A stretch of 64,000 nt of DNA from Thermodesulfobacteriota bacterium (GCA_034189135.1 JAXHVO010000026.1:64900-128899); one strand, 5' to 3'; positions 2,375-49,560 are shown, counted from the first letter of the stretch. The notes: generated by a model not told the origin, from the letters alone. A program made the numbers and translations.

Positions 2375-2618
2375 AAAGAAAACCTCATATTATGATCATT
2401 TGACCATAATATAAATACTGTAAAACATTTTGTCAAGGACTATTATGGGCATAGGCTCAAATAAAATTGTTTGATATTTTGTCTGAAGAATCTATAGCGG
2501 TTGTTTGAGACTTGGGGGTGAATAAGCAGTTGTATTAATACTCAGTTAGTTGAGGGATTGGGGAATTTTTCATCAATGCCTTTTTTGTGAACCATTTGCG
2601 CTTTAATGATTGTTAGAG

Positions 2619-2857
2619 GCTCATCCGGGGAAGCGACCCTATGCCGGTACAAGCCTTAACCAATGAGTATAGCGCTTTGTACACGCCCCCTATCTTTTAC
2701 GTTAAACCGATACAGGCAGTGATGATCATTGCCGCCGTGAAAATCTGTTTGATGGGGCTGGTTCAAATCCTATCTCAGCGAGATAGCTGCCGTACGTCAG
2801 TTTCTCGGTAATATTGTTAAGGCTTGTACCGGCATAGGGTCGCTTCCCCGGATGAGC
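2619..2857. ncRNA. Unclassified hairpin-closed conserved element, copy A (candidate structured RNA or invertible/cruciform DNA element)
   Basis: 2619-2660 is the exact reverse complement of 2816-2857 (42/42). The 155-nt core has a 114-nt block (2681-2794) that aligns without gaps to 49329-49442. Confidence 0.55.
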
Positions 2858-2891
2858 TGAGTAGAGATGGAAAAACGGCCCGAACCCTCAG

Positions 2892-3848
2892 TTAGTTATG
2901 GGAAAAGGAGGGATCTTCCTGGATTTGATAAAAAAACCCTCGATTTTGTTTCACCACTTTGATTTTTTTGTCTGCCTCAAGTACATCAAGATATTTATTC
3001 ACCTCATTCATATGCATACCCAGCAATTCGGTGAGATCCTGCAAGGTACAGGGGCGTCTTGCAATGGTTTCCAGAATGGCTGATTCGGCGTCTTTTCGAT
3101 AGGAGAGAAGTTCTTTCCGTTTGGGTGGTTTGGCGATTATTTCGGCATAATCAAGGTGCCAGAAATCAATAATGCTTTTAAGCTCGTTGCTGGTGGCTGA
3201 GCGAATATTCTGGACGGTTCCCGGCCTGTCCAATGTATTGAGTTGCACCCGGTCCGGTTTTATTTTTTCTATCGCGTCTTTAAGTGCAGTTAATTCCTCC
3301 TTTGTATTATTAATGCTGGGGACGATGAAAATTTCCAGCCAGATTTGTCCGGAATATTCTTTTCTAAATTGGATCAAGCCCTCGATAACGGTATCGATAT
3401 TAAGCTTTGGATTGGGCCGAACGATTTTGGCAAAAGATATTTCACTAGCCGCGTCTAAAGAAGGTATGACCACGGTGGCATCTTTGATATCGTCACGGAC
3501 ATTTTTCTGGAAAAGGAGTGTGCCGTTGGTAAGCACAGCCACAGGAATATTAAAAGCCTGTGTTTTGATGAAACGAATCACATCCCCAATGGCCGAATTT
3601 AAGGTGGGCTCACCAGAACCTGAGAATGTGATATAGTCCGGCTTCGGATGGTGAGACAAAAAATGAGAAAGTTCTTTCTTGATCTCTTCGAAGGGCACAT
3701 ATTCTCTACGATTTAAAGTAAGGTGAGTGGTTCGTCCGCATTCACAGTAGATACAGTTTAAGGTACATGTTTTCATGGGAACCAGATCGAGTCCCAATGA
3801 TATTCCCAATCGTCTTGAAGGTACCGGACCGAATAGATGGTTGTACAT
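2892..3848 (-). CDS. Radical SAM protein with C-terminal winged-helix-like domain
   Basis: The N-terminus reads GPVPSRRLGISLGLDLVPMKTCTLNCIYCECG, which contains the CxxxCxxC cluster motif. 318 aa. Confidence 0.8.
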   Translation of the reverse strand: MYNHLFGPVPSRRLGISLGLDLVPMKTCTLNCIYCECGRTTHLTLNRREYVPFEEIKKELSHFLSHHPKPDYITFSGSGEPTLNSAIGDVIRFIKTQAFNIPVAVLTNGTLLFQKNVRDDIKDATVVIPSLDAASEISFAKIVRPNPKLNIDTVIEGLIQFRKEYSGQIWLEIFIVPSINNTKEELTALKDAIEKIKPDRVQLNTLDRPGTVQNIRSATSNELKSIIDFWHLDYAEIIAKPPKRKELLSYRKDAESAILETIARRPCTLQDLTELLGMHMNEVNKYLDVLEADKKIKVVKQNRGFFYQIQEDPSFSHN

Positions 3849-4235
3849 AGATACGTCCTTTTTTATCGGTTAACAATTTTAATCATGGCGAGGTTATTGC
3901 TAAGCTTTTTTGAGTTTTTCGATGAACTGCATTTTTTGGTTTTTAGCTTTTATTCTTTAAGGGAATTTTATGCCTAATAAATCATATGTCAAGATTAATA
4001 GTAACTAGTTGCTTTAGGTGTTCACAGCTTGGTGTTTGAAGCAGCCTAACTGCATAAAAAATGATATTTCATTTTAAATGGCAGTTATCTTTTACCCATT
4101 GGATGAAAGCGATCAGTTTGAGTATTGGCAATAAAGTGTGATATGTCAATATATTATGAGCACTGAACGCTAAATTTTGTACCTTTGGACTATTCCATTC
4201 AGTTTTTTCTTGCTAATTTATCCTTACCAATATAT

Positions 4236-4307
4236 ATTTACACCGTTTACTCCATTTACACCAATTTCACCATTTTCACCATTTACACCATTTACACCAT
4301 TTATACT
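4236..4307. repeat. Tandem array, 8 x 9 bp (consensus ATTTACACC)
   Basis: Units read atttacacc gtttactcc atttacacc aatttcacc attttcacc atttacacc atttacacc atttatact. The array ends 37 nt before the response-regulator ATG. Confidence 0.9.
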
Positions 4308-4343
4308 AATTATATCGTTATGGCCAGGCGACAAAGGAGAAAT

Positions 4344-44962: not shown

Positions 44963-45121
44963 GAGACCTTTGAAAAATGGTAATTTTCGAAGTCTACGCT
45001 TATCTGTCCGAGTTCAAGAAAGGCAAAGATTTCAACCACAGGAATATATTGAATATTTCGAGGATTGAAATTTGAGACTGACGTAGAAATCGGACAAAAA
45101 GTGCCGTTTTGCAAAGGTCTC
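44963..45121. repeat. MITE-like palindromic repeat, copy 2 (159 bp)
   Basis: Same GAGACCTTTGAAAAATG ... TTTTGCAAAGGTCTC termini and internal hairpin as 1180-1321. It carries an extra roughly 17 bp near the left end. Confidence 0.8.
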
Positions 45122-45329
45122 TAGAAGATGGGCCCATGGTCTGTGTCAGAGACAAACAGTATAACATTGAAGGGTAAGCGTTCACTGGAGGTTGAAACAG
45201 GGAATTTGGCCCTCTCCCGGATTTCTAATTTCCCATTTCATGTTTATAGCTGTAAATTGCTGAACACATCGAATGCAGAGTGTGTGAAAAACCGCTACAA
45301 CACAGTAAATAGGACTTTTTCCAACGCCA

Positions 45330-49172: not shown

Positions 49173-49267
49173 GATTTCTAAGCACGTTTATCTTTATATA
49201 CGGTTTTTGTTCGTTTAAACGGAATATATTTATTAAAAACAAACATACGTTTTTCCATTTTAGCTCG

Positions 49268-49506
49268 GTTCGATCGGGGCATCACCTATGGGCCTGTTCC
49301 CATACTTAACAAATAATATCAGTATCTTACACGCCCCCTATCTTCTCAGTTAAACCCATACAGGCAGAGACGATCAACGCCACCGTGGGATTCTGTCCCC
49401 TGGGGCTGGCTCAAAATTAATTGAAGCGAGATAGCTGCCGTATGTTCATTTCCAGATAGGATTGTTAAGTATGGGAACAGGCCCATAGGCGATGCCCCGG
49501 TCGAAC
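49268..49506. ncRNA. Unclassified hairpin-closed conserved element, copy B
   Basis: 49268-49310 pairs with 49464-49506 at 41 of 43 positions. The 153-nt core contains the same ACACGCCCCCTATCTT ... GTTAAACC ... ATACAGGCAG ... TGGGGCTGG ... AGCGAGATAGCTGCCGTA blocks as copy A. Confidence 0.55.
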
Positions 49507-49560
49507 TGAAAAGAGATTGAACCCCCCCCGACCCTTTAGATAATTATTCACAGTATAAGG

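Follow-up and report, generated by a model that had tools for sequence, protein, structure and literature searches.

A nested, invertible repeat unit within a putative MITE family of Desulfobacterales-type genomes

Background

The closest described counterparts of the repeat family reported here are the Correia repeat enclosed elements (CREE) of Neisseria. CREE are 100-155 bp in length, with terminal repeats of about 26 bp, a TA target duplication, promoters, and a binding site for IHF. For the Correia element, inverted repeats around a conserved core are described in PMC2649163, and inversion of the CREE interior has been reported (Elbeyioglu et al. 2017, Microbiology 163:31, as cited in PMC10969869). 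The present family resembles CREE in that both are small non-coding MITEs with inverted repeats and a conserved core, both are abundant in intergenic DNA, and in both the interior inverts. There is, however, no sequence similarity between them, and the present elements are about 338 bp long, with an 8 bp duplication, a different terminal repeat, and Desulfobacterales-type hosts. They also differ in that inversion occurs via a second, internal pair of 42 bp repeats nested within the terminal repeats, and in that no promoter has been found.

Invertons, such as fimS and the invertible regions of Bacteroides, likewise consist of a short segment bounded by inverted repeats that is seen in both orientations, but these are fixed chromosomal loci with a dedicated recombinase, conserved repeats, and an internal promoter. 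In the present family, the switch is carried by a mobile element dispersed in dozens of copies, its repeats vary freely in sequence except for the conserved inner 9-10 bp of the arms, and neither a recombinase nor an internal σ70-type promoter was found in the sequences scanned. REPINs are reportedly dispersed non-coding sequences whose two halves pair as a hairpin that compensatory changes preserve (Bertels and Rainey 2011), and the present family is also a dispersed non-coding hairpin with compensatory changes. REPINs, however, are doublets of REP sequences mobilised by RAYT transposases, of about 100 bp, in which the REP arms are conserved and the spacer is short and variable, and they make no target duplication. 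The conserved spacer, the classical terminal inverted repeats, and the 8 bp duplication of the present family rule out a REPIN, and identification as an attC site was likewise rejected.

Two further comparisons concern the arms of the hairpin. Quasipalindrome correction in bacteria, with the related rearrangements mediated by inverted repeats, proceeds by RecA-independent template switching, acts at the level of the DNA, perfects imperfect inverted repeats, and inverts the spacer between them, which matches the mirrored arms and the lack of wobble bias described below. It is a general mutational mechanism, studied in reporter constructs, and to our knowledge it has not been described as a stable property of a transposon family. 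The TIMEs of the Tn3 family have 38 bp repeats, whose outer tip is GGGG and whose inner end is TAAG, together with a 5 bp duplication. The arms here also hold GGGG and end in TTAAC, but their pairing extends 8 bp outside the GGGG, there are no flanking direct repeats, and the outer arm is variable, so that a Tn3-family TIME was rejected.

The repeat unit in the window and its second copy

The sequence analysed, referred to here as the window, is a single stretch of 64,000 nucleotides from a Thermodesulfobacteriota bacterium (GCA_034189135.1, JAXHVO010000026.1:64900-128899). An earlier reading of this sequence alone (the sequence-only reading) had singled out a unit, here called copy A, with perfect arms around a 155 nt core, and the repeat search agrees on both points: the left arm at 2619-2660 and the right arm at 2816-2857, both given as read on the plus strand, are exact reverse complements over 42 nt (42/42, 100%), and the core between them, at 2661-2815, is 155 nt. 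The unit lies, as had been said, in the 517 bp gap between a radical SAM gene and a DUF134 gene, both on the minus strand. The second unit some 46 kb away is also present, with the repeat search placing this copy B at 49265-49509 and not at 49268-49506. Its arms, at 49265-49312 and 49462-49509, are 48 nt long and 94% complementary, in keeping with the claim that pairing is near perfect within each copy, and they enclose a core of 149 nt (49313-49461) that is 77-79% identical to that of copy A (nhmmer, 220 bits).

The hand count of 24 mismatches in the 114 nt that align without gaps (2681-2794 against 49329-49442; 79% identity) was exact. The figure of about 40% for the difference between the arms of the two copies was too low, there being differences at 22 of 42 positions in an ungapped comparison and at 43-49% in a gapped alignment. 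Within the 64 kb window, the two most conserved core blocks, TACACGCCCCCTATCTT and GCGAGATAGCTGCCGTA, are found in just these two places, against a chance expectation of 0.04-0.09. The genes on either side of copy B, encoding DUF4147/MOFRL and pyruvate kinase, are on the minus strand, as are those beside copy A. These neighbours, and the dozens of unrelated contexts in which the family is found, led to rejection of a retron msr-msd, with its a1/a2 repeats and adjacent reverse transcriptase.

Structure of the element

The sequence-only reading took the arms to be the ends of the element and its conservation to be the reverse of that of a MITE. The greater conservation of the core than of the arms is real, but it is modest across the family, the arms being about 70% and the cores 75-79% identical, and the inference that the unit is unlike a MITE was wrong in its main point, as terminal repeats and 8 bp duplications lie outside it. 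The first hint of a larger element was that the alignment of copies A and B continues to be conserved to the right of the right arm; conservation runs 67 nt further left and 32 nt further right than the arms. It is probable that the hairpin unit is the interior of a non-coding, non-autonomous MITE of about 338 bp, the internal inverted repeat of which recombines, flipping the core and homogenising the arms.

In copy A, the element is 338 bp (2552-2889) and has 20 bp terminal inverted repeats. The left terminal repeat, GAGGGATTGGGGAATTTTTC, is at 2552-2571 on the plus strand, and a pattern search with it finds its partner at 2870-2889. The long outer flank, LF1, is 67 nt (2552-2618) and is made up of the terminal repeat and a conserved asymmetric segment (...GTGAACCATTTGCGCTTTAATGATTGT...); the short outer flank, RF1, is 32 nt (2858-2889) and ends in the right terminal repeat. 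The target-site duplication AGTTAGTT is at 2544-2551, with an identical sequence at 2890-2897, and the right-hand duplicate contains the TAA stop codon of the radical SAM ORF (2892-3848, minus strand). A σ70-type promoter is located upstream of the DUF134 operon at 2408-2436 on the minus strand (TTGACA, 17 nt, TATATT; 11/12). As this near-consensus promoter is just outside the MITE, insertion was between the DUF134 promoter and the stop codon of the upstream gene. It is the single such match in the scanned region, with none inside 2552-2889.

The family alignment gives a terminal repeat consensus of GAGGGGTCGGGGAGTTTTTC for the outermost 20 nt on either side, inverted, with 8 bp direct repeats immediately outside. 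The LF1 flank is conserved among family members at unrelated loci, and its profile has 74 matches in the fetched DNA. In the 38 unique complete copies, which are those with both ends recognisable, the element is 336-342 bp; core lengths in the family alignment range from 153 to 157 nt. The 8 bp target duplication is perfect in 13 of the 38 complete copies and matches at 7 of 8 positions in another 13 (26/38 together), compared with 6.4% of between-copy comparisons that reach at least 7/8; this background is high because the target is itself conserved, being AT-rich and roughly AATTAATT. The family thus has what characterises a MITE, namely small size without coding capacity, terminal inverted repeats, a duplication of fixed 8 bp length, and numerous copies scattered over unrelated loci. 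The length of the duplication may point to an IS family such as IS256, ISL3, or IS1595.

Neither the roughly 800 kb of fetched loci nor the window yielded an autonomous element or a transposase that shares these ends, and there is no transposase or recombinase among the scanned window ORFs, which are housekeeping genes such as ilv/leu, topA, dprA, secDF, rng, leuS, and murJ. No shared transposase was seen near the copies, whose neighbours are unrelated; just two-component system genes recur. The mode of transposition proposed below is one that we infer from the terminal repeats and the target duplication only.

Stray matches to the terminal repeat elsewhere are solo remnants. At one such site, in locus L052 (6363-6180, minus strand), a solo 31 nt terminal repeat remnant is followed by a 27 codon fragment resembling the HxxRH region of tyrosine recombinases (...ITAHTFRHRFTSH...), an adjacency that may be coincidence.

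A nested arrangement, in which the arms would be the termini of a second MITE, was rejected. No direct repeats flank the arms, whose outer ends vary more than any other part of them, and the search gave no truly empty shell, the single short version (L092) still having outer arm ends.

Distribution of the family

A homologue search with the core, which had been proposed from the window sequence, recovered further copies, and about 97 are now recognised in public genomes and metagenomes by an nhmmer core profile. Of these, 82 are near full-length and the rest are shortened or cut by contig ends; about 40-50 of the total are in one assembly, CAJHXW01. They come from several Desulfobacterales MAGs and from marine or hypersaline metagenomes, and the loci are unrelated. 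When species-representative genomes were searched with a two-block core pattern, there were 8 true homologues and 2 chance matches, the former in Desulfobacterales MAGs, in the Olavius-associated Delta 1 proteobacterium, and, as five copies, in one Deltaproteobacteria MAG. A scan of metagenomes added 87 further loci. A blastn comparison of the 338 bp element with plasmid and phage collections gave no match.

About 12 copies have other outer flanks, designated type 2, as does one side of copy B, with the same arms and core inside. In these type-2 shells, no terminal inverted repeat or target duplication was recognised and the boundaries are not definable. This counts against the MITE explanation as put forward here, since the inner module may have more autonomy than would a passive interior. 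The left flank of copy B (49211-49267) is, from alignment with type-2 copies, the reverse complement of the type-2 right flank (RF2), and its right flank (49510-49537) is of the RF1 type (...AGAGATTGAACCCCCCCCGACCCTTT; RF profile match 17.6 bits), so that the shell of copy B is chimeric and decayed.

Two inverted copies of the element are found about 5 kb apart on one contig of CAJHXW01 (L021 and L093). A third copy in this assembly (L029, 12763-13280) shares its left flank with the L021 copy (97% over 473 bp) and its right flank with the L093 copy (90%). It may mark a junction formed by recombination between copies, or the region may be paralogous.

Inversion of the core

Because the outer flanks are asymmetric (67 nt for LF1 and 32 nt for RF1 in copy A), the orientation of the arms and core within the element can be scored. 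Among the 82 near full-length copies, 30 share the forward orientation of copy A and 37 have the inverted one; the remaining 15 are bounded by flanks of other kinds. Orientation is not correlated with relatedness, the nearest neighbours by sequence having the same orientation in 25 cases and a different one in 38, and opposite orientations are seen even in pairs that are 95-96% identical, such as L004 and L008 from one MAG. At two orthologous loci, the inner segment alone is reversed (L038 compared with L037, L055, and L049; L041 compared with L001 and L054), while the outside flanks, shell, and arms are colinear; the members of these groups were recovered from different assemblies. Perfect target duplications are present in copies of both orientations, so that the flip took place inside intact inserted elements. 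An invertible segment with arms homogenised by recombination had been the second of three suggestions in the sequence-only reading, and it is the one that these orientations, and the mirrored arms described below, bear out.

All of the orientation calls are from assemblies. The fetched contigs include six pairs of near-identical loci, of which four or more combine different assemblies, and the orientation agrees in every case, which argues against an arbitrary choice of orientation by the assembler. Logan contigs from SRR24907504 and SRR24907505, which are from the organism of the window, end in or beside the arms and are uninformative on orientation. The assemblies show that the core inverts; the mechanism given below is inferred.

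One genomic site has the whole element, including the shell, reversed between L045 (7785-8027) on the one hand and L069 (1915-2156) and L048 (506-748) on the other. The target duplication there is reverse-complemented, as AGCTAATT in one and AATTAGCT in the others. This could be either inversion of the whole element across its terminal repeats or repeated insertion at a hot spot.

Core orientation might have consequences for adjacent genes. Where the neighbouring genes are co-directional, the "+" strand of the core is antisense to them in 16 of 22 cases (16:6), or in 14 of 18 (14:4) with stricter ORFs, although with crude gene calls and an uncorrected p of about 0.03-0.05; across the family (L001-L100) the outer shell has no such bias. 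A bias of this kind is not predicted by purely neutral flipping and so counts against the MITE explanation given above. It would be in keeping with a programmed inverton carried by the MITE, in which a site-specific recombinase encoded elsewhere acts on the inner ends of the arms, CCTTAACAAAT and ATTGTTAAGG, and orientation is read out on the neighbours as phase variation. That orientation is near 50:50, and flips faster than the sequence diverges, would also be expected of such a system, as would the weak bias of the core and not the shell. The bias is, however, marginal and derived from crude ORF calls, no recombinase gene is found in the scanned window ORFs or recurs near other copies, and the core of copy A has no σ70-like promoter or terminator. 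We regard a programmed inverton as unlikely, with further evidence on both sides coming from the arms and the core.

Pairing of the arms

The arms of the family keep their pairing while their sequence is free to change. In 48 of 70 copies there is at most one mismatch in the 42 bp of arm, and across these 70 copies most arm positions have three to four Watson-Crick pair types. Among the mismatches, 32 are G·T-type and 28 are A·C-type, with no preference for wobble pairs on either strand. An RNA helix under selection should tolerate G·U and not A·C, and the absence of such a bias argues that the pairing is kept at the level of the DNA and not of the RNA. Orthologous copies show that changes arise in both arms together, with the differing arm positions mirrored on both arms at 6/6, 9/10, 8/9, 14/16, and 4/6 positions, although such mirroring could also come from conversion, if the inner segment were replaced as a whole by that of another copy. 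Copies with decayed shells, such as copy B and L007, keep near-perfect arms, so that selection for competence in transposition cannot be what maintains the pairing. The simplest account of the perfection of the arms is concerted evolution by the same intramolecular exchanges that flip the core.

The first suggestion made from the window sequence was a structured RNA with a long closing helix of the RNase III type. Spelled out further, the arms would be an RNase III substrate that closes off a conserved, functional core, and the element would either spread as an RNA gene or be cut out of read-through transcripts. The predicted fold is indeed very stable, with a folding energy about 10 standard deviations below that of shuffled sequences on either strand (z about -10), but any perfect 42 bp palindrome must give this result. 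The covariation analysis that had been proposed does find massive two-sided covariation in the arms; in the core, RNAalifold finds no compensatory change in the predicted pairs, which are invariant or have one-sided changes. There is an analogy in the Correia transcripts, which are bound or cleaved by RNase III according to PMC2649163. The lack of wobble excess in the mismatches does not fit with an RNA, and the comparison with Rfam that had also been proposed returned nothing: Rfam 15 has no match at gathering score anywhere in the window, and the interval 2400-3100, scanned permissively with E up to 10, gave just a chance lncRNA match. Copy A has neither a σ70-type promoter nor an intrinsic terminator. 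As the core lies either way round with respect to both the flanks and the adjacent genes, transcription in a given context does not consistently use the same strand, and the orthologous copies decay rapidly. Taken with these observations, a structured RNA is highly improbable.

The strictly Watson-Crick nature of the pairing is what DNA would give, and it is therefore also to be expected if the arms are kept as a DNA hairpin or cruciform for a mobilising enzyme or host protein, with arms and core as the transposition unit, interchangeable outer flanks, and pairing that is due to selection and not conversion. The presence of the same arms and core within at least two different outer shells fits with this, as does the retention of a mini-palindrome of the outer arm ends in the deletion derivative L092 and the fact that the half-copies L028 and L024 are broken at the exact centre of symmetry. 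Against this, near-perfect arms are found in copies with decayed terminal repeats, which can no longer be selected for mobility, and mirrored changes accumulate in situ at orthologous loci. The outer arm ends are, moreover, the most variable, unlike termini bound by a transposase, and the arms have no flanking direct repeats. Selection for a hairpin is on balance quite unlikely to account for the pairing, and it is compatible with, rather than exclusive of, the recombining MITE that is preferred here. A cruciform or protein-binding site, the third of the original suggestions, is conceivable on the present evidence.

The shortened copies have features of their own. In L092 (11887-12014), the outer shell is intact and the arms and core are cut to a 27 nt stub from the outer arm ends, a central deletion such as an unstable palindrome would be expected to undergo. 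The half-copies in L028 (about 8041-7917, minus strand) and L024 (1852-1975) are internal, not at contig ends, and begin no more than 2 nt from the exact centre of the core (...|GTGGGAATC...), a hint that breakage took place at this point of symmetry.

The inner 9-10 bp of the arms (CCTTAACAAAT and ATTGTTAAGG, with the inner motif CCTTAACAA) are far more conserved than the remainder, and it is at the outer ends that the arms vary most. The conservation of the inner ends is more than homologous recombination by itself would account for and counts against the preferred explanation, and nearly invariant inner ends in an arm that otherwise varies freely are what would be expected of the sites of a recombinase. 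Site-specific exchange there would, however, leave the outer 30 bp of each arm unhomogenised, whereas this part is in fact perfectly mirrored. It is the type-2 flanks, the conservation of the inner arm, and the orientation bias that keep a programmed switch under consideration. Carried furthest, this would make the arms and core a portable, self-contained flip-flop switch, a conserved 155 bp cargo with an orientation of consequence to host or element that is flipped by a putative recombinase at CCTTAACAAAT and has been captured by at least two shells. Orientation would then have its effect through, for example, RNA processing, termination, or protein binding. This proposal we consider improbable.

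Conservation of the core

The core of copy A contains the conserved blocks GTACACGCCCCCTATCTT, ATACAGGCAG, TGGGGCTGG, and AGCGAGATAGCTGCCGTA. Across the family, GCCCCCTATCT, ATACAGGCAG, and CTGGGGCTGG are nearly invariant, and the block AGCGAGATAGCTGCCGT is also invariant, which is in part ascertainment from the search patterns. The terminal repeats are no more conserved than the core, again partly through ascertainment from the search patterns, and this counts against the core being merely the interior of a MITE.

Strong conservation of the core across species would be in favour of a programmed inverton. At orthologous loci, however, divergence of the core, arms, and shell alike runs ahead of that of the flanking DNA, which is mostly coding, so that there is little sign of constraint at the level of the host; that the cores outpace the flanking genes argues against host-level selection for a switch. 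Rather more speculatively, the conserved blocks might be cis-acting sequences that are kept in actively transposing lineages.

A coding function for the core was rejected; the consensus frames are open, but there are indels of 1-4 nt between copies, long invariant runs, and no three-base periodicity. A tRNA-like origin, suggested by GGTTCAAATCC in copy A, was also rejected, as the motif is not kept as a T-arm in the family and Rfam finds no tRNA.

Proposed mechanism

The preferred explanation, a MITE with a recombining internal repeat, can be set out as a series of steps. A candidate transposase acting in trans would presumably recognise the outer 20 bp terminal repeats, GAGGGGTCGGGGAGTTTTTC, and insert the element into an AT-rich 8 bp target of approximately AATTAATT, which would be duplicated. 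Intramolecular exchange between the 42 bp arms, either by homologous recombination or by template switching during replication, could then flip the 155 bp core in place. Heteroduplex repair or gene conversion accompanying this exchange would copy new mutations from one arm to the other, and such copying would leave the arms perfectly complementary within a copy while they drift apart between copies.

Other repeats in the window

A second, unrelated family of short repeats of about 145-165 bp is present in the window at 1178-1321 and 44977-45123, these two copies being 91% identical over 117 nt. Their ends form inverted repeats, GAGACCTTTGAAAAATG... and ...TTTTGCAAAGGTCTC, and this is probably another MITE. 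At 4236-4325, about 10 tandem 9 bp units (similar to ATTTACACC) are found at the 5' end of an ORF starting at 4185, where they encode a repetitive IYT/YTI stretch upstream of a protein with HTH_17 and response-regulator domains. Between 4934 and 17404 there are large paralogous sensor histidine kinase genes, with offsets of 5476, 5581, and 7260 bp and 67-82% nucleotide identity (families D1-D5, D10, and D12).

Conclusions

Perfect and covarying long helices in bacterial intergenic DNA can arise wholly from concerted evolution at the level of the DNA. Inverted repeats of this kind are a trap for the discovery of RNA motifs by covariation, for which two features can serve as diagnostics, namely the lack of a G·U bias and an enclosed segment that flips.

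Should the orientation bias prove real, which the present evidence does not show, the elements would be mobile switches, and if the core does act as a captured switch, mobile phase-variation cassettes would be seeded throughout Desulfobacterales genomes.

The present family adds to the known elements a MITE family from Desulfobacterales-type genomes and from marine or hypersaline metagenomes, with no match to described elements in the collections searched. Since a recombining inverted repeat is nested within it, every copy, of which there are dozens, is an invertible segment of small size from which larger rearrangements might start.
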